From assembly GCA_965221905.1 (NCBI GenBank), contig OZ244922.1, positions 3,039,504 through 3,071,503 on the forward strand: a stretch of 32,000 nucleotides of DNA. The letters are read 5' to 3'. A program made the translations under genes and the position numbers. The notes under the pieces were generated by a model. The model saw only the letters and a program-made list of their open reading frames with translations, was not told where the DNA came from and did no database searches. Shown in pieces: positions 3,266 to 17,433 of the stretch. Source of the stretch: Chloroflexota bacterium (GTDB lineage Bacteria; Chloroflexota; UBA11872; VXOZ01). Position 1 is the stretch's first letter. Every line of letters begins with the position of its first letter.

Positions 3266-4254
3266 ATGCCTTACGTAGACGATGCTCTTCTCTTGCCCCT
3301 CGGCACCAGCCTCCTGCTCTTGCTTTGGCTCTCTTTCTGCGGCGCCGTCCTCGTCCGCTTCTGCTGCTCTATTCGCAGTTGGACGCTGCTGCCTCCCCTC
3401 GGCCTCGCTGCCGGTTGCGCTATCTTCCTCGTCTGCGCCAATCTCCTCGGCAAGGTCGGCGCTCTACCTGAGGGTTCCGGAATCGCCGTCCTTGTCGGCA
3501 CAGTCGGCACTGTGCCTCTGGCCTTCGGCGGCGCCTTCCTCTTGCTCAGCGCCCTCGGCATCTTCGCCTCTTTCCAATTACGGCCACACTCCTGGCAGCT
3601 ACCCTCCCGTCGAACGCTCCTCGCAGTCTGCGGCTATTCCCTCTTAGCTCTCGTGCTCGCCTACGTCTGTCTCGCCATTCGCAACCAGTCCTACTTCTAT
3701 GACTTCCCTACCCACTTGGCATTCGCGACTACCATCGCACGCGACAACCTGCCCGTGCGCAACCCCTACTCTCCGGTCTCCCCCTCCGGCTACCACTACG
3801 GCGCCGCTCTCCTCGTCGCTGCCCTCTCCCGCGCCGCCGGCCTGCCCGCTGTTACCGGTTATCAACTCCTCGCTGCTTTGCAAGGCGCAGCACTTCTCCT
3901 GCTCGTCTTCGCCTTGGGCCGCGAGGCCGGTAAACTCTTCCTCTGGGGCCTTGCCTGCCTCCTCGCCGCTCTCTCCATGGGAAGCTTGGTGCTCTGGCGG
4001 CCTTTCGCCGCGTTACCTCCTGCTCTCTCTCATTTGCTTGGCGGCAATCTGTCGCTCGATGCCCTCCTCCAGTTCCCCAGCCTCCGCCAATATATCGAAC
4101 TCGTCTATCCCATCGTCTCTTTCTCTTCCGACCTCCACTGGCTCTTGATCTATCCCCATCGACTCGCGGCCTTCTTCACTGTCGCCGCGTTGGCCGTGTT
4201 GCTTGTCGGACCAGGGCGCCGACGTTGGGGCCACACCACTATGGCCTTATCTAT
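3266..4254 (+). repeat. 989-bp direct repeat, copy 1 (100% identical to 6633-7621)
   Basis: Checked base by base over 3266-3650 and 4201-4254. In between, identity is supported by identical translations in the coding frame and in five overlapping alternative-frame ORFs on both strands. Confidence 0.9.
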
Positions 4255-6424
4255 TACCATCGCTGCTGCCATCGCCCTCTATGATGAAACTATGCTCCCC
4301 CTTGCTCTCATGGCCCTCGCTTGGCCTCTGCTCTCCCTCCGCCGTAATCCCCAACGCCTCGCCATTTGGTCGGGCGGCATCATCGCCACTATCGGCCTCA
4401 TTGCACTTCAAGGCGGCTCTGTCACCGACGCGCTATTTGGCACTTCCGGCTCGCGACCCCCTTTTTCCCTTTACTCCCCTGCCGAATTCTCCCGCTCGCT
4501 TATCTTTACCAAAGCGTTGCCTGAGGGGTGGCTCTGGATACTCCCTCCCCTACCCCTCGCCGCCTCCGCCCTCATCTTCATCTGGAAACGCTGGTGGCTG
4601 GGGCTCATGCTCTGCGGCTTCGGCTTCGCAGGCTACCTCGGCTTTCATATTGTGGATTACCAGGGAGCCATCGGTTCTGGCCAATGGGCCCGTGTCGTGA
4701 ACCTCTCATTTCTCACACTCGCTTTGGTAACGCCCTTGGCGGTTGCCCGTCTTCTCCGTGATGCACAGCCGTGGCGCACAGCGCTTGTCGCCTTCTTACT
4801 GATGCCCGTTGCATTGCCTACGCTCTTGCAGCCAGTGGCAAGCGTCTTATCCGAGCTCCCCCGTGAAATTTCACTCCACGATCCAGATCTCCCGGGCCTA
4901 GCTTATACTCCCCAAATCACCGACCCTTACGTACACCAAGAGCTTGTCAACTTTCACGATGTCTATCGGGACGTCGGGCAGTTGCTTCCCGATGACAGCG
5001 TCGTGCTGACGCAGCATCCCGTTTCATTCGCAATTGCCACGGGCCTCACCACAGCCTATGCCCCGACCTCCGGTCTCACACTGTTTCCTTCTCACCGCTA
5101 CATTCCGGATCCGGCGTTCTACGATGCTTTCTGGCGTCTTGATCCCGCTGCCTGGCGCGCCTTGGGCGCGACTGCCGTCCTCTATCACCACAATACCTAC
5201 CACTCCCTCCCACTAGCAGCTCGCAGACTGGTCGAGGACAGTGGCTGGTTCATTACGCACTACGATGAGAGCGACTTCTTGCTTCTAGCGCCTAACGAAG
5301 CCTTCTTCCGCTATGGGAATGCGTCTCCCAGTACCTTCGCCTCGTTCCGCGCGGCCCTTACTCCCAGGGATACCGTATTTCTTTCGCCTAATCTGCCTTA
5401 CGGCGTCGGACAAGCACTGGTGCATCTCCTGAGCGACCATCCTGTTGCGGGCCTAGGGCCCGACCTCAGTTCACACCACTGGATGGAGCTCATGCGGCCC
5501 CCAGGGCTTGATGCGGCGTCCGCCGTGTGGCACGCGCGCAGCCATATGGATACGCGGCTTGCCGGCGTCTTTCCAGAGGCTGCTCTTTGGGAGTGGCGGG
5601 CGCCAAGCGAAAGCGCGGGCGTGTACCCCAATGCTCCGATTCCCGCATTCGCTCCCCTAGAGCTTTCCGCCGGCCAGTCATTGGCCTTGCAAGCTAATCA
5701 CAGTAGACTTGCCTTGGACGACGCGCCCGGCATGGCCACATCCGTTCACTTCCGCTCACTCTCTCTCGTGCTTGCCGGGCACCCTGGAAGCGTGGTCCAG
5801 ATCTGTGCGCCCGCAGGATGTGCGCAGCGCGACCTGGGCGGCGCCACATGGACGTACAGCCTGCCCTTGATCGCAGAAAACACCCAATTCACGCTCTCGG
5901 TACTGCACGGCCGGGCCTTTGTCGCCGGCACGCTTGGCTTCTCCGACCGGCTCGCCGCGGTCCGCACTACCGGCGTTGTCATTCGACCCCGGCAAACTGA
6001 CAATGCCATTAAAGTAGACGTGAGTTACTTCAACTTTCAAGGATGGACACTTGGCAACGGCATAGCGTGGCAACTTGTGCGCGTTGACTCTGAGCAGGAG
6101 CGTCGGGTGCTTTCCCGCCCCAGCCAACTCATCATCTTTGGTGAGCTCGGCGACGTAGTCTACACGCTTGGTCCTGACGGGAGCCACGCTGAGCACAATT
6201 TCACTGAATCGCCGCCGCTGTTCGAGCAGGCTCGGGCACTGACCGATGGCGAGTACCGCCTCTTCCTCAGCTTCTTCATCGATCAATTTAAGGCCGCCGA
6301 TTGGATACCTGCCGCTCACTTTCGCGTGCAAGAGGGTACCATAGTATCGTTCACTCCACTGCCCCAGATTGCACGCCTGAGTTTTGGCGCGGAACACACG
6401 GAAACTGTTGTCTTGGAAGAATGA
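3266..6424 (+). CDS. Large polytopic membrane protein, paralog A (about 530-aa multi-TM N-terminal half plus about 520-aa non-membrane C-terminal half); possible GT-C-fold / YYY-type (DUF2298-like) protein
   Basis: 1052-aa uninterrupted ORF with at least 12 hydrophobic segments in residues 1-530. Loop motif YFYDFPTHLAFATTIARDNLPVRNPYSPVSPSGYHYG (nt 3692-3802). No SD sequence upstream. Confidence 0.85.
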   Translation: MPYVDDALLLPLGTSLLLLLWLSFCGAVLVRFCCSIRSWTLLPPLGLAAGCAIFLVCANLLGKVGALPEGSGIAVLVGTVGTVPLAFGGAFLLLSALGIFASFQLRPHSWQLPSRRTLLAVCGYSLLALVLAYVCLAIRNQSYFYDFPTHLAFATTIARDNLPVRNPYSPVSPSGYHYGAALLVAALSRAAGLPAVTGYQLLAALQGAALLLLVFALGREAGKLFLWGLACLLAALSMGSLVLWRPFAALPPALSHLLGGNLSLDALLQFPSLRQYIELVYPIVSFSSDLHWLLIYPHRLAAFFTVAALAVLLVGPGRRRWGHTTMALSITIAAAIALYDETMLPLALMALAWPLLSLRRNPQRLAIWSGGIIATIGLIALQGGSVTDALFGTSGSRPPFSLYSPAEFSRSLIFTKALPEGWLWILPPLPLAASALIFIWKRWWLGLMLCGFGFAGYLGFHIVDYQGAIGSGQWARVVNLSFLTLALVTPLAVARLLRDAQPWRTALVAFLLMPVALPTLLQPVASVLSELPREISLHDPDLPGLAYTPQITDPYVHQELVNFHDVYRDVGQLLPDDSVVLTQHPVSFAIATGLTTAYAPTSGLTLFPSHRYIPDPAFYDAFWRLDPAAWRALGATAVLYHHNTYHSLPLAARRLVEDSGWFITHYDESDFLLLAPNEAFFRYGNASPSTFASFRAALTPRDTVFLSPNLPYGVGQALVHLLSDHPVAGLGPDLSSHHWMELMRPPGLDAASAVWHARSHMDTRLAGVFPEAALWEWRAPSESAGVYPNAPIPAFAPLELSAGQSLALQANHSRLALDDAPGMATSVHFRSLSLVLAGHPGSVVQICAPAGCAQRDLGGATWTYSLPLIAENTQFTLSVLHGRAFVAGTLGFSDRLAAVRTTGVVIRPRQTDNAIKVDVSYFNFQGWTLGNGIAWQLVRVDSEQERRVLSRPSQLIIFGELGDVVYTLGPDGSHAEHNFTESPPLFEQARALTDGEYRLFLSFFIDQFKAADWIPAAHFRVQEGTIVSFTPLPQIARLSFGAEHTETVVLEE
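4526..4806 (+). repeat. 281-bp second near-identical block, copy 1 (matches 7893-8173)
   Basis: Same 3367-bp offset as block 1. The only mismatch I saw is 4581 T versus 7948 C (Ile/Thr). Much more diverged sequence flanks it on both sides. Confidence 0.8.
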
Positions 6425-6626: not shown

Positions 6627-9600
6627 ATGCCCATGCCTTACGTAGACGATGCTCTTCTCTTGCCCCTCGGCACCAGCCTCCTGCTCTTGCTTTGGCTCTC
6701 TTTCTGCGGCGCCGTCCTCGTCCGCTTCTGCTGCTCTATTCGCAGTTGGACGCTGCTGCCTCCCCTCGGCCTCGCTGCCGGTTGCGCTATCTTCCTCGTC
6801 TGCGCCAATCTCCTCGGCAAGGTCGGCGCTCTACCTGAGGGTTCCGGAATCGCCGTCCTTGTCGGCACAGTCGGCACTGTGCCTCTGGCCTTCGGCGGCG
6901 CCTTCCTCTTGCTCAGCGCCCTCGGCATCTTCGCCTCTTTCCAATTACGGCCACACTCCTGGCAGCTACCCTCCCGTCGAACGCTCCTCGCAGTCTGCGG
7001 CTATTCCCTCTTAGCTCTCGTGCTCGCCTACGTCTGTCTCGCCATTCGCAACCAGTCCTACTTCTATGACTTCCCTACCCACTTGGCATTCGCGACTACC
7101 ATCGCACGCGACAACCTGCCCGTGCGCAACCCCTACTCTCCGGTCTCCCCCTCCGGCTACCACTACGGCGCCGCTCTCCTCGTCGCTGCCCTCTCCCGCG
7201 CCGCCGGCCTGCCCGCTGTTACCGGTTATCAACTCCTCGCTGCTTTGCAAGGCGCAGCACTTCTCCTGCTCGTCTTCGCCTTGGGCCGCGAGGCCGGTAA
7301 ACTCTTCCTCTGGGGCCTTGCCTGCCTCCTCGCCGCTCTCTCCATGGGAAGCTTGGTGCTCTGGCGGCCTTTCGCCGCGTTACCTCCTGCTCTCTCTCAT
7401 TTGCTTGGCGGCAATCTGTCGCTCGATGCCCTCCTCCAGTTCCCCAGCCTCCGCCAATATATCGAACTCGTCTATCCCATCGTCTCTTTCTCTTCCGACC
7501 TCCACTGGCTCTTGATCTATCCCCATCGACTCGCGGCCTTCTTCACTGTCGCCGCGTTGGCCGTGTTGCTTGTCGGACCAGGGCGCCGACGTTGGGGCCA
7601 CACCACTATGGCCTTATCTATAGCCATCGCCGCTGCCATCGCTCTCTACGATGAAACTATGCTCCCCCTTGCTCTCATGGCCCTCGCTTGGCCTCTGCTC
7701 TCCCTCCGCCGTAATCCCCAACGCCTCGCCATTTGGCTCGGCGGCGCCCTGGCCGCTATCGGCCTCATTGCACTTCAAGGCGGCTCTGTCTCATACGCAC
7801 TGTTTGGCAATGCCGGCACCGGCTCCCTCTTATCTCTGCGATCTGTGCCGGACGCCGCCCGCTCTGTCACCTTGACCAGAGTGCTCCCGGAAGGGTGGCT
7901 CTGGATACTCCCTCCCCTACCCCTCGCCGCCTCCGCCCTCATCTTCACCTGGAAACGCTGGTGGCTGGGGCTCATGCTCTGCGGCTTCGGCTTCGCAGGC
8001 TACCTCGGCTTTCATATTGTGGATTACCAGGGAGCCATCGGTTCTGGCCAATGGGCCCGTGTCGTGAACCTCTCATTTCTCACACTCGCTTTGGTAACGC
8101 CCTTGGCGGTTGCCCGTCTTCTCCGTGATGCACAGCCGTGGCGCACAGCGCTTGTCGCCTTCTTACTGATGCCTGTATTCCTACCCACGCTTACCCAACC
8201 AGCGGCCAGCATCATCTCCGATCTCCGTAAGGAAGTTACGTTTCACCACCCGGAGTCTCCAGGGCTGGTTTACACCCCCCAGATCACCGATCCATGGGTC
8301 ACGCGCCGGTTATTCGAGAATCGAGATGTCTACAGGGATATCGCCCAAGTGCTGCCCGATGACAGCGTCGTGCTTACTCAACATCCCGTCTCATTCGTCA
8401 TCGCAACAGGCCTACCTGCCGCCTATGGATCTATCGACGGCATTACCCTATACGCTTCCCACATCTACTTTCCCGGCCCAGCCTTCTACGATGCTTTCTG
8501 GCGACTTGATCCCGCAGCGTGGAGCTCATTAGGCGCTACTGCGGTTCTCTATCACCAAAGAATGTACTACTCACTGCCACAATCGGCGCGGGAACTCTTA
8601 GAAACCGATGGCTGGTTTTTACGCCGCAACGACGACCGCCAACTTCTGCTCTTCACTCCTACCGAGGCATTCCTCCAGTATGGCCCAACCCCTGCGAACA
8701 CTCTATCCGCATTGATGACGTTACTACCGTCTACAGATACGCTCTATCTGTCGACTGACTTACCCTTTGGGATGGGACAAGCACTTGTGCGGAAACTTAA
8801 GGATCGCCCAACGGTTGGCCTCGGGCCAGAAAATAGAGTACACCAGTGGATAACGGTAAATAGACCTGTATGGTTAACAGAAGCTGAGGCGACATGGCAC
8901 GTGCGCAAGGATTCGGAGGTGCGGCTATCCGGAACACTCCCTGAGGCCGCGTTGTGGCATTGGCGCGCGCCAAGCGAAAGTGTAGGGGTCTACCCAAACG
9001 ACACGATACCGGCCTTTTCTCCCAGACTGCTTGCGGCCGGCCAGTCCTTACGCTTGCACGCAAGCCGCCAAGACCTTGTTTTGGAAGATGGGCCCACCGT
9101 CACCTCGCCTGTGCAGTTCCGCTCACTCTCTCTCGTACTTGCCGGGCATCCTGGTAGCGTTGTCCAAGTCTGTGGCCCGACAGGATGTGCGCAACGAGAC
9201 TTGGGTGGTGGGACGTGGGTCATTGGGCTGCCACTGAATGCTGATCTTTCGCAGTTCACGCTCTCCGCAGTACAAGGCGAGGCTTTCATCGCTGGTACGC
9301 TCGGCTTCAGTGAACACCTCACTGCGGTTCGCGCACCCGGTGTCGTCCTTCGATCTCGGCAAACTGGCAACACTATTGAAGTGGATGCCAATTACTTTAA
9401 TCGCCAAGGGTGGACCCAAGGGGATGGCGTAGCGTGGCACCTTGTCAAAGCAAAAACCAGTAAGGGCGAGGGCGGACTGTGGTGGCCCAGCCAGCTCATC
9501 ATCCATGGTGAGCGCGGTGACGTTCGCCTTACCCTGGACCCGTCCGGCACATTCGCCGAATATAACTTCACGACTCCCCCGTCGCTAAATCAAGTCGAAG

Positions 9601-9785
9601 CGTTGACTGATGCAGAATATCAGCTATACCTCGCCTTCACCATTGATCCCTTTGGGGTTGTAGATCGGGTACCTGCAGCGCGGTTTCTTGTTAGTGAGGG
9701 TTCTATCGTAGCGTTCACCCCGCTACCGCAAATAGCGCTCCTGAGCTATGGTACGGAACACGTCGAGCCATTTATTTTAGAGTAG
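6627..9785 (+). CDS. Large polytopic membrane protein, paralog B of 3266-6424
   Basis: 1052-aa ORF. The homologous start is the second ATG at 6633, where nucleotide identity with paralog A begins. Same TM architecture as A; the C-terminal half is clearly homologous but much more diverged, by eye. Confidence 0.85.
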   Translation: MPMPYVDDALLLPLGTSLLLLLWLSFCGAVLVRFCCSIRSWTLLPPLGLAAGCAIFLVCANLLGKVGALPEGSGIAVLVGTVGTVPLAFGGAFLLLSALGIFASFQLRPHSWQLPSRRTLLAVCGYSLLALVLAYVCLAIRNQSYFYDFPTHLAFATTIARDNLPVRNPYSPVSPSGYHYGAALLVAALSRAAGLPAVTGYQLLAALQGAALLLLVFALGREAGKLFLWGLACLLAALSMGSLVLWRPFAALPPALSHLLGGNLSLDALLQFPSLRQYIELVYPIVSFSSDLHWLLIYPHRLAAFFTVAALAVLLVGPGRRRWGHTTMALSIAIAAAIALYDETMLPLALMALAWPLLSLRRNPQRLAIWLGGALAAIGLIALQGGSVSYALFGNAGTGSLLSLRSVPDAARSVTLTRVLPEGWLWILPPLPLAASALIFTWKRWWLGLMLCGFGFAGYLGFHIVDYQGAIGSGQWARVVNLSFLTLALVTPLAVARLLRDAQPWRTALVAFLLMPVFLPTLTQPAASIISDLRKEVTFHHPESPGLVYTPQITDPWVTRRLFENRDVYRDIAQVLPDDSVVLTQHPVSFVIATGLPAAYGSIDGITLYASHIYFPGPAFYDAFWRLDPAAWSSLGATAVLYHQRMYYSLPQSARELLETDGWFLRRNDDRQLLLFTPTEAFLQYGPTPANTLSALMTLLPSTDTLYLSTDLPFGMGQALVRKLKDRPTVGLGPENRVHQWITVNRPVWLTEAEATWHVRKDSEVRLSGTLPEAALWHWRAPSESVGVYPNDTIPAFSPRLLAAGQSLRLHASRQDLVLEDGPTVTSPVQFRSLSLVLAGHPGSVVQVCGPTGCAQRDLGGGTWVIGLPLNADLSQFTLSAVQGEAFIAGTLGFSEHLTAVRAPGVVLRSRQTGNTIEVDANYFNRQGWTQGDGVAWHLVKAKTSKGEGGLWWPSQLIIHGERGDVRLTLDPSGTFAEYNFTTPPSLNQVEALTDAEYQLYLAFTIDPFGVVDRVPAARFLVSEGSIVAFTPLPQIALLSYGTEHVEPFILE
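6633..7621 (+). repeat. 989-bp direct repeat, copy 2
   Basis: Identical to 3266-4254 at a 3367-bp offset. Confidence 0.9.
7893..8173 (+). repeat. 281-bp near-identical block, copy 2
   Basis: Matches 4526-4806 with one observed mismatch. Confidence 0.8.
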
Positions 9786-12084: not shown

Positions 12085-13095
12085 ATGACTGGGCAAGACC
12101 CTATTCGTACTATTCACGTTGGTGTCGGCCGCCGCGGCCGCTGGCCGCTGGAAGTGCTTACCGCCGATCCGCGATTTCGGCCCGTGGCCCTAGTCGACGT
12201 TTCCCCCGATTTGCTCGCGGAGGCGCAGGCGCTTACGGGACTCGATGAGTCAGTTTCGTTTTCGCATCTGGAAATAGCACTCGCAACCGTGCAGGCCGAC
12301 GCCGTCATCATCTGTACACCCACGGCTTTCCACGCCCCTTTGGCGAGGCTGGCGTTTGATGCGGGCAAGCACGTGCTGGTTGAAAAAGGCATGACGACCA
12401 ATTGGCAAGATGCAGTGGGTCTCGTAGCCGAGGCGGATCGCGCGGGCGTAAAGTTCTGCGTCTCGCAGAATTACCGCTATCGGCCTGAGGTGCTTACCCT
12501 GAAATCCGCTATCGAAAGCGGCGACCACGGTACGCCGCATCTCATCGACCTGGTTCATCACCGCTTCCGGCCCACGCCCCGCACGCTGGACTATCCCTTT
12601 GCCATGGTTTGGGACATGAGCGTGCACCATCTGGATAACCTGGTCTTCTGCTTTGGGCCGGTTGCTGAAGCCACGGCAAGGAGTTTCACTGCGCCCTGGT
12701 CGCAGTACTCCCACGACGCGGGCATCTCTGCGGTGCTGCACTTTGCAAGCGGGCCCGTTGCCACGTACGCCATGACTCACATCGCCAGCTACAACGACTA
12801 TCGCTTTGTGGTGCAGAGCGCCGAAGGCGTGTTGGCCTGGGACGGTGCCGACTGGCAATGGCAGGAAACACCTGCGTTGGATTTCGGCAAGGCGCAGCCG
12901 CCCCGGGCGGTACCCCACGCGCCGGCGCCACATCGAAGCGAGCAGGGCGTTATCGACGACCTCTACCGGTACATCGTGGATGGCATCGAGCCCGGCATCA
13001 GCGGGCGCAATAACCTGGAAATTCTCCGCGCCTGCGAGATGCTCTGCCGCTCAAGCCAAGAACAGGGCACCGTGCACAGAGATGAGGTAAGTTAG
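12085..13095 (+). CDS. Gfo/Idh/MocA-family NAD(P)-dependent oxidoreductase
   Basis: IHVGVGRRGRWPLEVL Rossmann start, ADAVIICTPTAFHAPLA and AGKHVLVEKGM (EKP-like motif). AGGAGG lies 10 nt upstream of the ATG at 12085. A TTG at 12076 overlaps the upstream stop. Confidence 0.9.
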   Translation: MTGQDPIRTIHVGVGRRGRWPLEVLTADPRFRPVALVDVSPDLLAEAQALTGLDESVSFSHLEIALATVQADAVIICTPTAFHAPLARLAFDAGKHVLVEKGMTTNWQDAVGLVAEADRAGVKFCVSQNYRYRPEVLTLKSAIESGDHGTPHLIDLVHHRFRPTPRTLDYPFAMVWDMSVHHLDNLVFCFGPVAEATARSFTAPWSQYSHDAGISAVLHFASGPVATYAMTHIASYNDYRFVVQSAEGVLAWDGADWQWQETPALDFGKAQPPRAVPHAPAPHRSEQGVIDDLYRYIVDGIEPGISGRNNLEILRACEMLCRSSQEQGTVHRDEVS

Positions 13096-13222
13096 CGATT
13101 TGCAGAGGGGCGCTACCGCGTTGGGTTGAGAGGTAGACCACACTGCTTAGCACAATGACTTAGAATCAAATACAATACGCCGGTCGTAATCGTAGAAAAG
13201 CAATCGACGGTATCGATTTGTA

Positions 13223-13813
13223 ATGAAAACTCGCTTTTTAGTATTGTTGGCAGCGCTCATAGCAGTCATGGCTTGCGAATCCCCGGCTGAATCCACTCTG
13301 GTTTACACGCCGGAGCGGCAGCCTACGGTTGCTCCATCGGCCACGCCTCAAAACGCGATCCCAACTCCATCTCCTGAGAGCCTCATCATGCTGCGGGATC
13401 CGCTCGACGAGCCGGAATTCTATTGCGTAGACGTTGCGGGCTTTGGCAACAATCTAAATCTGAACAGTCCGCTCCAGGCCCACACGTGCAAGCCAGGGGC
13501 CGACGACGAACTCTTCATCTTCAACCATCCCACACCAGGTCAGTTCTACATGGACGCTTACGCTGTCTGTCTCGAGGCGGCGGAAGGCTTGCTCTACGTG
13601 CGAGCATGCTCGGAATCACCAAACCAACGATTCGTCTTGAGCGACGACGGCGCAATTCGTTTGGGTGACTCCGATCTATGCCTCGCGGTCAAGTCCGGTG
13701 ACGGTCAGCCCGCAGGCGGCAGATCGCACGTGCGCCGCGACTTGCTGCTGCAAAGCTGCGCCGACGCGGAGCAGAGCCTCACCCGTTGGTCACTGCCGGG
13801 ACCGAGTCCTTAG
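13223..13813 (+). CDS. Secreted lipoprotein, possible ricin-type beta-trefoil (lectin-like) domain
   Basis: Signal peptide MKTRFLVLLAALIAVMAC with a lipobox Cys, followed by a Pro/Thr/Ser linker. A Cys-rich region of about 130 aa has QxW-like repeats (NQRFVL, LTRWSL) and paired cysteines. Confidence 0.7.
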   Translation: MKTRFLVLLAALIAVMACESPAESTLVYTPERQPTVAPSATPQNAIPTPSPESLIMLRDPLDEPEFYCVDVAGFGNNLNLNSPLQAHTCKPGADDELFIFNHPTPGQFYMDAYAVCLEAAEGLLYVRACSESPNQRFVLSDDGAIRLGDSDLCLAVKSGDGQPAGGRSHVRRDLLLQSCADAEQSLTRWSLPGPSP

Positions 13814-13855
13814 CAGCAATTCTTACCCTGCTTGCCGGCCCCGCACTTTCCCAAG

Positions 13856-13876
13856 TACTCACCGGCGTGGTGAGTA
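13856..13876 (+). other. 8-bp hairpin 43 nt after the lipoprotein stop (possible terminator without a U-tract)
   Basis: tactcacc (13856-13863) - ggcgt - ggtgagta (13869-13876). Confidence 0.3.
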
Positions 13877-13983
13877 ACGCGCCCAATCTGAGTGAATTGC
13901 GCCGCGGAATTAGTAGATTTAGGCTTACATGGGTCACATGCAAGACACGTGGCCGTACCCAGGCCAAAGCCAGATTCTCAAAC

Positions 13984-14075
13984 TGTCATTCCGAGGAGCG
14001 CAGCGACGAGGAATCTAGAGTCAGGAGCTTTCTAAATTCCTTGAACTCTGGTTCGCCGCTACGCTCGGAATGACA
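13984..14075. repeat. REP/MITE-like palindromic element
   Basis: 12-bp terminal inverted repeats tgtcattccgag (13984-13995) / ctcggaatgaca (14064-14075) flank 68 bp. The gtcattcc.../...ggaatgac motif recurs at 28180-28190 and, degenerate, at about 21976-21986. Confidence 0.45.
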
Positions 14076-14135
14076 AGAACCGCTGCCTCGCAAAAGCTTC
14101 AAGCCTATATCTACTAATTCCGTTGCGCCGCTAGT

Positions 14136-14165
14136 TTGACACGCTCATTTGCCGCCTGTTATCAT
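14136..14165 (+). promoter_or_regulatory. Sigma70-like promoter upstream of the aroF leader
   Basis: TTGACA (14136-14141) - 18 nt - TATCAT (14160-14165). Pattern match only. Confidence 0.35.
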
Positions 14166-14220
14166 GCCTCAGTATTTGCAGCGTGCCATGCACGCTTGGC
14201 AGTGCAACAAAGGAATTAGT

Positions 14221-14280
14221 GTGGTAGTCGCAGCTCTCAACTATTATTATCTGTTTATTGAGCCGGAGGGTCCGGCTTAA
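14221..14280 (+). CDS. Candidate leader peptide MVVAALNYYYLFIEPEGPA (19 aa) with a Tyr-Tyr-Tyr-Leu-Phe run
   Basis: GTG at 14221 with AAAGGA 6 nt upstream. TAT TAT TAT CTG TTT at 14242-14256 and TAA at 14278-14280. In-frame ATGs at 14188 and 14164 would give 30- and 38-aa versions. The ORF is too short to appear in the ORF track. Confidence 0.35.
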   Translation: MVVAALNYYYLFIEPEGPA

Positions 14281-14337
14281 GCAGATTTGCTTTGTCCCAG
14301 CGGACAATACGAGAGCAGACGACACCCTCCGGCGATA

Positions 14338-14370
14338 GCAGAAAGTGAAAGACTTTCTGCTTTTTCTTTT
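14338..14370 (+). terminator. Canonical intrinsic terminator inside the aroF 5' leader (attenuator candidate)
   Basis: gcagaaagt (14338-14346) - gaaag - actttctgc (14352-14360), followed by tttttctttt (14361-14370). The T-tract is on the plus strand only. It lies 145 nt upstream of the aroF ATG. Confidence 0.6.
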
Positions 14371-14515
14371 ATAGAAGGGAGTAGGTGGCAGCATAGATTC
14401 GCTAGAGCGACAACCACCGCGGAACCAGTTGTCAAAGACGTTGTGCATATAAGGCAGCCTCACACAACGAAGGCGCAATGCAGCAACTATGCAAAGGAAT
14501 GAAAGGTAGAGCGAC

Positions 14516-15565
14516 ATGATTGTGATAATGCGACCCGAAGCAACACCGGAGCAGATCGCTGCCGTACGCCAGCGCATTGAAGACGAGGGCTTGGAGTCGA
14601 CCGTCAGCCAAGGTGTTAATAAGGCAGTGATCGGCCTCATCGGCAAACGTCCTCCCGGCATGTTGGAGCGCGTACAGGTGCTGCCGGGAGTGGAGATGGT
14701 CATTCCGGTTGACAAGCCGTACAAGTTCGCAGCCCGGGGTGAGGGCGGCGATGATACGCAAATTCGCGTTGGCAACGTGACCATCGGCAGCAATGAAATT
14801 GCCGTGATTGGCGGTCCGTGCAGCGTGGAGAGTGAGGAGCAAATCGTCGCTACGGCAGAGGCCGTGAAGGAAGCGGGCGGGCACATCCTGCGGGGCGGCG
14901 CCTTCAAGCCGCGCTCCTCTCCATACAGCTTCCAAGGCAAGGGCAGAGAGGGCCTGGAGCTACTCCGCACTGCCGCAAATGCCACCGGTCTGCCCCTCAT
15001 TACGGAGGTCATGGAACCCGGTAGAGTGCCGCTGGTAGCCGAATACGTCGATATCCTGCAGATCGGCACCCGCAACATGCAAAACTTCCCCCTGCTGCAA
15101 GCTGTCGGCAACACCGATAAACCGGTGCTGCTCAAACGCGGCATGGCGGCAACCATCGAAGACTTGCTGATGTCCGCGGAATACATTATGGCCGCCGGTA
15201 ATATGCGCGTGATCCTCTGCGAGCGGGGCATTCGCACCTTTGAAACGGCCACCCGCAACACACTAGACCTGAGTGCCATACCGGTGATAAAAGAACAATC
15301 TCATCTGCCGGTGATCGTCGATCCCAGTCATGCCACGGGTATGTGGGAGCTGGTAAAGCCGATGTCGCTAGCTGCTGTCGCCGCCGGAGCTGACGGTGTG
15401 ATGATTGAGGTGCACCCACATCCGGAGCTGGCGCTTTCAGACGGGCCCCAGAGCGTCACACCGGCACGTTTCTTCGACATCATGGATGCCATTCGCAAAG
15501 TGGCGGCCTCGGTAGGTCGGGAAGTACCCGCCGCCACAGCCGAGATGGAAGCCGCCACCCCGTAA
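14516..15565 (+). CDS. aroF: 3-deoxy-7-phosphoheptulonate (DAHP) synthase, type I-beta, with an N-terminal ferredoxin-like regulatory domain
   Basis: The catalytic core [43 protein letters not shown] and VDPSH matches KDO8PS-like type I-beta DAHPS. An extra domain of about 75 aa ([26 protein letters not shown]...) resembles the one in the Thermotoga-type enzyme. Confidence 0.95.
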
Positions 15566-15580
15566 CCGGAACACGCATGC

Positions 15581-16147
15581 TTGCATGGGAAGAAAAACGT
15601 GAACGCCTGGGTGCAGATGATAGCGGAGGACAAAGCAGAGGGTCAGTTACGCGCGGTCTACCAAGAGCTTCTCGGTGAAGGAAGGCAGGGCAATGTCCCT
15701 GACTTCCTTCGTTTGCACAGCCTCGTGCCCGGCGCGATTGCTCCGCTGGCCCAACTACACAGAGCCATAGCGTATGGCCCTGGCGAATTGTCGCGCGTAC
15801 AACGCGAGTTGATCGCCACAGTGGTGTCAGTCATAAACGGCTGCGCACTCTGCCAGGAACTCCATAGCCGCCTGCTTCTCCATCGCACACGTGACGAAGC
15901 GCTCGTGGCGCAAGTCCTACGCGACTTTCGCAGCGCGCCGCTCTCGGCGGCGGACCGCGCATTGCTAGAGTATGCGGCAAAGCTCACGACTTCACCGGCC
16001 GCCGTAACCCAGGAAGACGTTGGCCGCCTGCGCCGGATCGGCTTTAGCGACGCAGCTATCGTCGAGACGGCTACGCAAACCGCACTCTTCAATTACCTGA
16101 ATCGCGTCATTCAAGGTCTCGGTCTTGGAGAACCTGCCCTACCATGA
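15581..16147 (+). CDS. AhpD/carboxymuconolactone-decarboxylase (CMD) family protein, peroxidase-related subgroup
   Basis: CxxCxxxH motif present as CALCQELH, and an overall all-helical AhpD-like pattern (EDKAEGQLRAVY..., LSRVQRELIATVVSVINGC). The start is uncertain: TTG 15581, GTG 15599 or ATG 15617. The stop overlaps the aroA ATG (ATGA at 16144-16147). Confidence 0.8.
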   Translation: MHGKKNVNAWVQMIAEDKAEGQLRAVYQELLGEGRQGNVPDFLRLHSLVPGAIAPLAQLHRAIAYGPGELSRVQRELIATVVSVINGCALCQELHSRLLLHRTRDEALVAQVLRDFRSAPLSAADRALLEYAAKLTTSPAAVTQEDVGRLRRIGFSDAAIVETATQTALFNYLNRVIQGLGLGEPALP

Positions 16148-17433
16148 AGCGAATCGATCCTATCGATCACCCCGTAAACGCGACCGTTACCCTGCCGGGA
16201 TCGAAAAGCTATACCAACCGAGCGCTCATCATCGCCGCCATGGCCGCCGGGACGTCGCAGTTGCGACAGGCCCTCTTCAGCGACGACACCGTCTACATGG
16301 CCCAAGCGCTCCGGGAGCTTGGCATTCCCGTAACGGCGGATGAGACCACCAATACGTTCACTGTGGAAGGCCGGGGCGGCTCCATTCCCGCCAGCCGGGC
16401 CGATCTCTTCGTCGGTCTTTCCGGTACAAGCTCCCGCTTTCTCACGGCACTCGCCGCTTTGGGCCACGGTCAATACTGCATCAATGGGGTCGCGCGCATG
16501 CGCGAGCGTCCGATGCAACCCTTACTCGCAAGCATCCGTCAGCTTGGCGGCACGGTTCGGTCCCGTCATGACAACGACTGCCTGCCCATTGAGATTTCTG
16601 GGCACGGACTGCGTGGCGGTGCTGCCGTGATGGCCGGCGACCAGAGCAGCCAATACTTCAGTGCTCTCCTGATGGTAGCGCCATACATGACACAAGGACT
16701 TGATCTCTCTGTGGAAGGGCGCCTGATTCACGGTCAGTACATCACGATGACGATGAAGAGCATGGCGGACTTCGGGGTTGTGGCAACCGGCGAGGAAAAC
16801 AAGCGCTTCCGCGTGGCGCCCGGGCAACGCTATCAGGCCCGCACGTACGATATCGAACCGGACGCCTCAGCCGCTTCGTACTTCTTTGCTGCCGCTGCGC
16901 TTACGGGAGGTACCATGCGCGTGGAGAATCTCGGCGCTGACTCTGCCCAGGGAGACTTGGACTTTGTCGACGTGCTGTCAGAGATGGGCTGCAACGTTGA
17001 AAAGGGCGCCGATCACGTGAGAGTAACTGGGCCCGGAAAACTACGGGGCGTGGACGTTGACATGGGATCGCTCTCCGATACGTTCATGACTCTTGCCGCC
17101 CTTGCGCCGTTTGCGGACGGCCCGACCGTCATTCGCGGCATAGCGCACACCCGGCTGCAAGAAACCGACCGTGTCCATGCCACCGCCCAAGAGTTGCAGA
17201 AGCTCGGGGTTGCAGTTGAAGAATTCGAAGACGAACTACACATCAGGCCCGGCCCCATGCACGGGGCTACCATCGATCCCCACAACGACCACCGCATTGC
17301 CATGAGCTTTGCGCTGGTGGGTCTACGGCAGCCTGGTGTTGTAATCGGCAATCCCGCTTGCGTAGCCAAGACATTCCCCGATTTCTTTGACCGTTTGGAT
17401 GCGGCAACATCCCCCACCAGCGCGCCGGTCTAG
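16144..17433 (+). CDS. aroA: 3-phosphoshikimate 1-carboxyvinyltransferase (EPSP synthase)
   Basis: LPGSKSYTNRALIIAA, GLSGTSSRFL, RMRERPM, SSQYFSALLM, DHRIAMSF and FPDFF are all hallmark EPSPS motifs. Confidence 0.95.
   Translation: MKRIDPIDHPVNATVTLPGSKSYTNRALIIAAMAAGTSQLRQALFSDDTVYMAQALRELGIPVTADETTNTFTVEGRGGSIPASRADLFVGLSGTSSRFLTALAALGHGQYCINGVARMRERPMQPLLASIRQLGGTVRSRHDNDCLPIEISGHGLRGGAAVMAGDQSSQYFSALLMVAPYMTQGLDLSVEGRLIHGQYITMTMKSMADFGVVATGEENKRFRVAPGQRYQARTYDIEPDASAASYFFAAAALTGGTMRVENLGADSAQGDLDFVDVLSEMGCNVEKGADHVRVTGPGKLRGVDVDMGSLSDTFMTLAALAPFADGPTVIRGIAHTRLQETDRVHATAQELQKLGVAVEEFEDELHIRPGPMHGATIDPHNDHRIAMSFALVGLRQPGVVIGNPACVAKTFPDFFDRLDAATSPTSAPV

Follow-up and report, generated by a model that had tools for sequence, protein, structure and literature searches.

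A Putative Tyrosine-Tuned Leader-Peptide Attenuator Upstream of a DAHP Synthase Operon, and Its Relatives Across Chloroflexota

The stretch of DNA analysed here, referred to below as the window, comprises 32,000 nt of contig OZ244922.1 from a Chloroflexota metagenome-assembled genome (MAG), and all coordinates are positions within it. It carries an aroF-CMD-aroA operon (14516-17433), the first gene of which encodes a 3-deoxy-D-arabino-heptulosonate 7-phosphate (DAHP) synthase (DAHPS). As its sequence elements and modelled folds suggest, the leader in front of aroF is probably a ribosome-mediated transcription attenuator that tunes the operon to the supply of charged tRNA-Tyr. It combines a translatable leader open reading frame (ORF), a cluster of codons cognate to the pathway, a terminator before the first gene and structures that depend on the position of the ribosome, features by which attenuators are recognised. 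A first-pass annotation of the same DNA had proposed attenuation of the pheL/trpL type at this place from five elements lying in order on the plus strand; all five are found in the sequence, and the proposal is now supported by conservation in a close clade and by aromatic codon runs in distant relatives. Leader-peptide attenuation is documented chiefly in Proteobacteria and Actinobacteria, with a few cases in Firmicutes. The mechanism itself is known; what has not previously been described is a family of aromatic leaders with an unusual layout that extends across the phylum Chloroflexota, and our literature search found no account of an aromatic leader in this phylum or for a DAHPS of the Thermotoga type, which carries a ferredoxin-like (FL) domain. 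If the attenuator is real, control by tRNA-Tyr charging would form a second layer beside the allosteric inhibition to which the opening enzyme of the shikimate pathway is subject.

Layout of the Leader and Predicted Structures

The elements of the leader, all on the plus strand, are listed here in order of position. MFE denotes the minimum free energy structure.

14136..14165, +, sigma-70-type promoter: TTGACA at 14136-14141, an 18-nt spacer with the TG of an extended -10 element, TATCAT at 14160-14165
14172..14205, +, 5'-terminal stem-loop of the leader transcript (MFE), with an inverted repeat at 14180-14186/14190-14196
14209..14214, +, Shine-Dalgarno (SD)-like AAAGGA, 6 nt 5' of the GUG start at 14221
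14221..14280, +, leader ORF of 19 codons with a GTG start, MVVAALNYYYLFIEPEGPA-stop, the stop codon at 14278-14280
14223..14238, +, 5' strand of helix P1, involving the start codon and codons 2-6, paired with 14311-14326 in the MFE
14242..14250, +, putative regulatory Tyr codons UAU UAU UAU
14251..14284, +, hairpin P2 (protector): lower stem CUGUUU:AAGCAG, upper stem GAGCCGGA:UCCGGCUU
14262..14271, +, segment A, GCCGGAGGGU, with two alternative partners, segment B (inside P2) or segment C
14292..14307, +, hairpin P3, the variable third arm of the junction
14311..14326, +, 3' strand of P1, its final 3 nt (ACC) being the 5' end of segment C
14324..14333, +, segment C, ACCCUCCGGC, partner of A in a predicted starvation-specific helix A:C (antiterminator core)
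14328..14342, +, direct-repeat copy of the P2 3' arm, UCCGGCGAUAGCAGA, to be compared with UCCGGCUUAAGCAGA at 14271-14285
14337..14371, +, intrinsic terminator: 10-bp stem at 14337-14361, loop GAAAG, U-tract UUUUCUUUU

The promoter matches the consensus at 11/12 positions and is the top-scoring promoter-like site in a 3-kb scan (13000-16000). Transcription would start near 14172, judging from the position of the promoter, and the window leader would then have a 5' untranslated region of 49 nt that includes the SD. The stem-loop that follows may be a transcript-stabilising or pause element; orthologues keep a 5'-terminal hairpin built from other sequences, for example GCUGCAAAAC...GUUGCAGC in L004.

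Folded as free RNA, the leader forms a three-way junction of P1, P2 and P3 followed by the terminator, and per-sequence MFE predictions give the same arrangement in nearly all of the 16 aligned sequences. The 204-nt leader reaches an MFE of -76.5 kcal/mol (z = -5.6 against 200 shuffles), which is beyond chance. P2 spans the final codons and the stop of the ORF; it contains the hairpin that the first-pass annotation had placed at 14261-14277, which is real and extends to 14251-14284. Segments A and C (10 nt each) are 100% complementary, as had been noticed earlier, the distal 10-mer lying at 14324-14333 and not, as first given, at 14323-14332. The 3' arm of P2 is in effect duplicated as C plus the spacer plus the 5' arm of the terminator (T5), so that the 5' arm of P2 is able to pair with either copy. 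The two copies are identical at 12/15 positions (80%), the distal one reaching from C across the spacer into the terminator, of which it takes in the first 6 nt, and both are kept in 16/16 aligned sequences.

The terminator, likewise recognised in the earlier annotation, is the sole terminator-like site in the same 3-kb scan. A U-rich stretch, TTTTCTTTT, lies 3' of its stem, and it ends approximately 145 nt 5' of the aroF ATG at 14516. Its stem is invariant in the 16 sequences while its loop varies, and the hairpin has a dG of -13.5 kcal/mol in orthologues with the same stem. The 145-nt spacer between terminator and aroF contains an inverted repeat, CGTTGTG/CACAACG, at 14439-14469; a GCCUC...GAGGC hairpin occupies a comparable position in orthologues.

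Conservation and Covariation in the Close Clade

The close clade was assembled from 15 GTDB species genomes and two assembled contigs whose DAHPS are 83-98% identical. All elements (promoter, SD, GUG, frame, YYY, stop and terminator) are kept in its 17 orthologous loci. The conservation of a Tyr-rich mini-ORF and a terminator upstream of aroF orthologues, which the first-pass annotation had named as a check, turned out stronger than expected. The consensus runs, in this order, TTGACA-N17/18-TGnTAnnAT, the 5' hairpin, a purine-rich SD, GUG and exactly seven variable codons, after which comes the peptide core Y-Y-Y-L-F-[ITM]-[EK]-P-E-G-P-A and an in-place stop that may be TAA, TAG or TGA; CACCCUCCGGCG and the terminator are kept as well. 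TTGACA and TGnTAnnAT are retained in 15/15 orthologous loci, a purine-rich box (AAGGA, AGGGA or AGAGA) stands at equal spacing in 16/16 aligned sequences, and 18 loci agree in SD, start and frame; in all of them the three Tyr codons (TAT or TAC) are invariant as Tyr. Both the frame and the length of the ORF are maintained while codons 2-7 vary, and synonymous variation occurs at Tyr1 (TAT/TAC), Thr13 (ACG/ACA/ACC/ACT) and Gly17 (GGT/GGC/GGA).

At the RNA level, 6/14 pairs of P1 show changes on both sides, i.e., compensatory changes, in the close-clade alignment, and one pair of P3 has a compensatory change. In P2, 100% and 97% of cells are paired and the changes are solely from A-U to G-U. Taken over the whole structure, seven pairs are doubly changed, the shuffles giving 3.5 +/- 1.2, and pairing holds in 88% of cells, a share that drops to about 40% when the partners are slid. 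As P2, A:C and the terminator are invariant within this clade, covariation neither supports nor contradicts them. RNAalifold, run on the raw alignment, chose A:C and the terminator and missed P1 and P2; for this reason per-sequence folds and explicit pair counts were used instead.

A Predicted Switch That Depends on the Position of the Ribosome

Constrained folding reveals two alternative states. With the RNA free, or with a ribosome at the stop codon, P1 and P2 (together with P3) are formed; when a ribosome masks the Tyr codons, A:C replaces P1 and P2 in most of the 16 sequences. The suggestion that hairpin 14261-14277 and the distal 10-mer represent mutually exclusive pairings is thus borne out in these folds, the two exchanging with ribosome position.

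The following sequence of events can be proposed. RNA polymerase would initiate near 14172, and a ribosome would load at the SD and GUG and read the 19-codon ORF. When Tyr-tRNA is plentiful, the ribosome would reach the stop at 14278-14280 and depart, allowing the P1/P2/P3 junction to form. In this state P1 would sequester the ACC(C) end of C and P2 would sequester A, so that the terminator (14337-14361) would fold behind a single-stranded flank and transcription would stop near 14370. Under a shortage of Tyr-tRNA, the ribosome would wait with a Tyr codon in its A site, the 5' strand of P1 would be unwound and C would be freed to displace the P2 3' arm from A, giving A:C (14262-14271:14324-14333). 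P1 would in other words mask the ACC(C) of C from the GGG loop of P2, which it could otherwise invade, and a ribosome on codons 3-10 would lift this block. With Tyr1 in the A site, the A:C helix would run on as CUGUU:AGCAG into the 5' arm of the terminator, and in any stalled register A:C would end 2-3 nt from the terminator base. Its presence would delay or block completion of the terminator hairpin during passage of the polymerase over the U-tract, resulting in read-through into the operon. Because the Leu-Phe codons that follow YYY lie in the lower stem of P2, the signal sensed in the close clade is probably Tyr alone, and the earlier suggestion of tuning to Tyr (and Phe) probably has to be narrowed accordingly, UUU belonging to the stem. 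Aromatic runs of the more distant relatives mix Phe, Tyr and sometimes Trp.

The antiterminator state was modelled on a transcript ending after T5, with Tyr1 in the A site and duplexes allowed from +13, a limit that we assumed from the published position of the ribosome helicase. Before synthesis of the 3' arm of the terminator (T3), the MFE under these settings consists of A:C together with CUGUU(14251-55):AGCAG(14337-41) at -53.6 kcal/mol, as compared with -52.5 kcal/mol for P2, whereas the free RNA favours P1 and P2 (-63.1 vs -59.2 kcal/mol). The first-pass annotation had been unable to derive an antiterminator by eye; one is now predicted in part, since the 5-bp extension into the terminator 5' arm appears in the folds solely ahead of T3 synthesis and when Tyr1 occupies the A site. 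With Tyr2 or Tyr3 there, A:C alone persists, 2-3 nt from the terminator. When a +15 footprint is imposed, T5 is not sequestered before T3, and the 5-bp overlap needs a +12 footprint with Tyr1. Two other pairings were considered and rejected as not conserved or too weak, namely GAGAGCAGA (14311-19) with UCUGCUUUU and AAGCAGA (14279-85) with UCUGCUU.

A Family of Aromatic Leaders in Chloroflexota

A more distant set of Chloroflexota DAHPS loci (50-62% identity, several classes) contains leaders that are unrelated to the window leader in nucleotide sequence. In 43/61 of these loci a mini-ORF ending in a run of F, Y or W followed by x-x-P-[AV]-stop precedes a terminator, which is strong and is found 22-49 nt after the mini-ORF. 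Peptide tails include FYFFSTPV, WYYYFSRPV, FFFFYRSPA, FFYFYRDPA, FYFYRNPA, FFFMDPA, FYYWFSPPA and AYFAFTRPARPAGLPM. At least four aromatic codons are present among the last 16 in 35/47 loci, as compared with 1.1 (maximum 4) in shuffles, and UUC, UUU, UAC, UAU and UGG codons swap between near relatives. That aromatic runs are kept despite unrelated sequences, with interchange of their codons, argues for selection on decoding and not for a riboswitch. The leader is linked to DAHPS in 58/58 loci across classes. Going by record titles, family lineages within Chloroflexota include Limnocylindrales, Thermoflexus and Ktedonobacteraceae, and no member was found at the non-Chloroflexota DAHPS loci that were retrieved.

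Many relatives have a -10-like box (TACTGT, TATAGT or TACAGT) 10-14 nt before the ATG or GTG of an ORF of 11-12 codons, with the peptide pattern M-R-x-F-F-Y-F-Y-R-x-P-A; given this short distance, many distant leaders are probably leaderless or nearly so. Longer upstream "ORFs" in distant leaders (VAYCS...) were rejected as the promoter read in frame. Leaders in L016-L080 are situated about 100-370 nt upstream of DAHPS (e.g., L027, L037, L049 and L065), with promoter sequences such as TTGACA...TACTGT, and the tRNA genes near some relatives (Ser/Arg) are irrelevant.

An intermediate linking the close and distant groups is provided by L112 (JGI Ga0137716_10027648, 1270-1490), whose DAHPS is 72% identical. 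Its leader encodes WYYYFYFTRPEGPA..., i.e., W-Y-Y-Y-F-Y-F-T-R-P-E-G-P-A-W-V-G-G-stop, the stop being displaced four codons downstream. Its segment C (ACCCUUCGGC) abuts the terminator with a 0-nt spacer, and the G-rich SD region is the predicted partner of C in the free RNA.

A long GC-rich helix, H1, is present in all sub-families. It begins 4-5 nt past the last aromatic codon, and its 5' arm takes in the stop codon or the final codons of the ORF. Among 27 distinct P-[AV]-stop leaders, each position from -7 to +2 relative to the stop is paired in 26-27. H1 covaries, with compensatory changes such as CCGGUGUGA/CACACCGG, CCGGCAUGA/UCGUGCCGG, CCGACA/UGUCGG and UCCAGCA/UGCUGGA. Between its 3' arm and the terminator, 28 loci have no spacer (0 nt), nine have one of 1 nt, six one of 2 nt and 15 one of 3 nt, the loci of the window clade showing 2-3 nt. 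Of the 58 leaders, 49 possess an uninterrupted helix of 8 bp or more that comes within 3 nt of the terminator, as compared with 1/30 other terminators from the same loci. This abutment of H1 and terminator is the most conserved architectural feature of the family, and from its placement in the sequence the A:C helix of the window is the positional equivalent of H1. Spacer length followed terminator stability only as a trend driven by phylogeny, and no relation was seen within the distant set.

If the attenuator is real, an aromatic-run mini-ORF, a helix containing its stop and an abutting terminator would together form a signature useful for annotation, which fits dozens of uncultured Chloroflexota lineages. 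When metagenomes were scanned with the pattern GCCGGAGGGNCCGGC...CCCTCCGGC, the 31 loci retrieved were GC-rich and unrelated, and no leader was among them. The scan repeatedly matched one unrelated conserved element, ...GGTGTTCCGGGCGCCGGAGGGCCCGGCCGCCCGCGAGGCTAGGC...CCCTCCGGC, on contigs L086, L090, L091, L093, L099, L101, L102, L104 and L105; it resembles a structured or repeat element that is conserved in other GC-rich bacteria.

How Would Termination Be Prevented?

Several observations weigh against attenuation as set out above. In a thermodynamic search for the antiterminator, the terminator formed with P = 0.999 under every ribosome mask, and with T3 in place every ribosome register leaves the terminator state ahead by about 8-10 kcal/mol, meaning that only a kinetic or steric form of antitermination could operate. 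The predicted 5-bp overlap between antiterminator and terminator is confined to the Tyr1 register and, being invariant, lacks support from covariation; it is not predicted in folds of L112, which also depart from the simple scheme of the window. Nucleotide conservation of the ORF core is too high within the close clade to separate constraint on the RNA from constraint on the codons, and the stop-codon variants also fit P2 pairing (A-U to G-U). Moreover, all of the evidence is in silico and the sequences come from MAGs.

The models are best reconciled with read-through that would be kinetic, as in classical attenuators. An alternative, which we consider plausible but less likely than not, is that antitermination would be steric: an abutting, non-overlapping helix would compete for the RNA-polymerase exit channel in a ribosome-gated "tug-of-war," and no base-pair competition would be involved. 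In the tug-of-war arrangement, a stable structure located 0-4 nt upstream of an intrinsic terminator suppresses termination without any overlap; spacer length is critical, steric competition in the exit channel is invoked by the authors, and the layout is found in about 10% of natural ZTP riboswitches (Bushhouse, Fu & Lucks, 10.64898/2026.06.17.733018). The spacers of 0-3 nt in the 58 Chloroflexota leaders fall within this geometry, and the base of H1 would coincide with the leading edge, or entry site, of the stalled ribosome. When the 43 distant leaders were masked, T5 was not consistently sequestered and base-pair overlap between H1 and terminator was not predicted. The riboswitches differ in that a ligand-bound aptamer stabilises the structure, whereas in the Chloroflexota leaders ribosome position would permit or prevent it. 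It also speaks against attenuation by such a helix that simple hairpins had little effect on stable terminators (10.64898/2026.06.17.733018). Should the steric reading be true, these leaders would be the first natural example of tug-of-war antitermination outside riboswitches; the abutment of 0-3 nt also makes them a natural system in which antitermination free of overlap could be examined.

Alternative Explanations

The conserved P1/P2/P3 junction, with its covarying P1 and a start codon sequestered by that helix, could also be understood as a ligand- or protein-binding structured RNA, that is, a riboswitch-like three-way junction plus terminator in which the mini-ORF is incidental, and the conservation of UAUUAUUAUCUGUUUA at the nucleotide level, synonymous sites included, would agree with this. 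We nevertheless consider it improbable. Distant relatives drop both the junction and the sequence but keep the in-frame aromatic run, the start and the stop inside H1, and the interchange of UUC, UUU, UAC, UAU and UGG is that expected from selection on amino acids and not on RNA. Furthermore, no Rfam family was matched in the window or the related loci: at gathering thresholds the window gave no match (leader families, T-box and riboswitches among those searched), and ten related loci gave tRNAs only. At E<=10, region 13800-14700 returned a sub-threshold match to an S-adenosylhomocysteine (SAH) riboswitch and two chance matches on the terminator only; the former (13987-14092, 26.6 bits vs a threshold of 37) was dismissed as spurious and lies inside an insertion upstream of the promoter, described below, that resembles a miniature inverted-repeat transposable element (MITE). 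Another possibility is a TnaC-like sensor, in which the conserved C-terminus of the nascent peptide (PEGPA-stop, or P-[AV]-stop family-wide) would arrest the ribosome at the stop in response to free Tyr or Phe, in place of a sensing of tRNA charging. The family-wide Pro at -2 before the stop points in this direction, as does the location of the stop inside the switching helix, where dwell time matters. On the other hand, CCG-GYN-UGA is the GC-rich base of H1, and its Ala/Val/Thr changes are matched by compensation in the 3' arm; RNA pairing therefore accounts for the conservation of P-[AV]-stop. Since, in addition, charging sensors are typified by runs of 3-7 aromatic codons and the N-terminal residues are not conserved, such a peptide sensor appears very unlikely.

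A strong promoter, a strong terminator and a very stable fold, followed by 145 nt of poorly conserved spacer before aroF, might equally indicate an independent small RNA of about 200 nt (or a dual-function RNA) or a constitutive terminator or insulator, aroF then having its own promoter downstream of 14372. The leader is, however, always linked to DAHPS (58 loci across classes), no promoter-like site was detected between terminator and aroF in the 13000-16000 scan, and the ribosome-dependent switch and the aromatic codons would be left unexplained, so that we see little chance of this being correct. The scheme might finally operate in reverse, the terminator-adjacent helix aiding termination and the aromatic run pairing with T5, in which case stalling would cause termination and free translation would cause read-through. 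Ribosome-free pairing of the run with T5 is indeed possible, through UAUUAUCUGUU with AGCAGAAAGUG in the window and, by eye, UUCUACUUU with AAGCAGAG in L065, and in many distant loci a larger part of T5 is paired when the RNA is free than when a ribosome is stalled on it. This complementarity is nonetheless weak and largely compositional, the run being pyrimidine-rich and the arm purine-rich; aromatic biosynthesis would be shut off exactly when Tyr or Phe is lacking, which is maladaptive, and all characterised biosynthetic attenuators work the other way, making reversed logic the most improbable of these explanations. We thus retain attenuation relieved by stalling at Tyr codons as the preferred reading.

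Comparison with Known Leaders

With the E. coli attenuators of pheL-pheA, pheM-pheST, trpL and hisL (1:2 / 2:3 / 3:4), the window leader has in common a promoter, an SD, a mini-ORF with cognate codons, a protector, an antiterminator and a terminator, as well as a biosynthetic or aminoacylation target. The tail of the pheM peptide, ...FRFFFYFST, resembles the Chloroflexota family tail ...FYFFSTPV. The window leader differs from these attenuators in that its protector is a three-way junction including the start codon, that no Rfam leader family matches it and that the predicted overlap of antiterminator and terminator is no longer than 5 nt, most relatives having no such overlap. Many relatives apparently possess leaderless ORFs of 11-12 codons.

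The nearest functional precedent is aroR-aroF of C. glutamicum, where a leader with adjacent Phe-Tyr-Phe codons precedes a DAHPS operon (PMC11802643). Stalling of the ribosome raises read-through, and the response was to Phe and not to Tyr (Neshat et al., 2014, as related in PMC11802643). It follows that the first-pass remark that no Tyr leader was known for this DAHPS class needs qualification, a Phe/Tyr leader of a DAHPS operon having already been known in Corynebacterium. Both systems place a short leader ORF with aromatic codons before a DAHPS operon. They belong to different phyla (aroR to Actinobacteria) and show no sequence relation, the window leader has three Tyr codons, and a three-way-junction protector and an abutting antiterminator are not described for aroR. 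Leaderless short ORFs encoding poly-Cys in mycobacteria are also reported to be amino-acid-responsive attenuators (bioRxiv 10.1101/834739). They resemble the distant Chloroflexota leaders in being very short and leaderless, apparently so in the latter, with runs of one amino acid in the poly-Cys case; the window leader departs from them in its 49-nt 5' untranslated region with an SD and its canonical intrinsic terminator.

Operon and Genomic Context

14516..15565, +, aroF, type I-beta DAHPS with an N-terminal FL domain (Pfam PF00793 and PF18152)
15581..16147, +, CMD-family gene (Pfam)
16144..17433, +, aroA, 5-enolpyruvylshikimate-3-phosphate (EPSP) synthase (Pfam)

DAHPS of the Thermotoga maritima type is inhibited by Tyr via its FL domain; the aroF controlled by aroR encodes a type I-alpha-like enzyme and not one of type I-beta with an FL domain. 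The window DAHPS has its best PDB matches, over the full length, among enzymes of the Thermotoga maritima type (1RZM/3PG9). The order of the three genes is identical in L113 and L114, and the nearest genomes to the window are Chloroflexota MAGs. Two further ORFs in the region were treated as spurious, a 71-aa TTG ORF (14287-14502) and an antisense 382-aa ORF (14131-15279), which cross the terminator or overlap aroF.

Upstream of the leader, the MITE-like insertion occupies approximately 210 nt (13909-14119) and ends 16 nt 5' of the -35 box. Its termini carry inverted repeats of 19 nt, aattagtagatttaggctt / aagcctatatctactaatt, and a further inverted repeat, GTCATTCCGAG, lies internally (13985-13995 / 14064-14074); the window and L002 have the insertion, and the same site is empty in L001. 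The remaining genes of the window are mostly concerned with envelope and polysaccharide. Two tandem plus-strand ORFs at 3266-6424 and 6627-9785, of exactly 1052 aa each and without a Pfam match, look like paralogues, as CCCTCCGGC occurs in both at a nearly equal offset.

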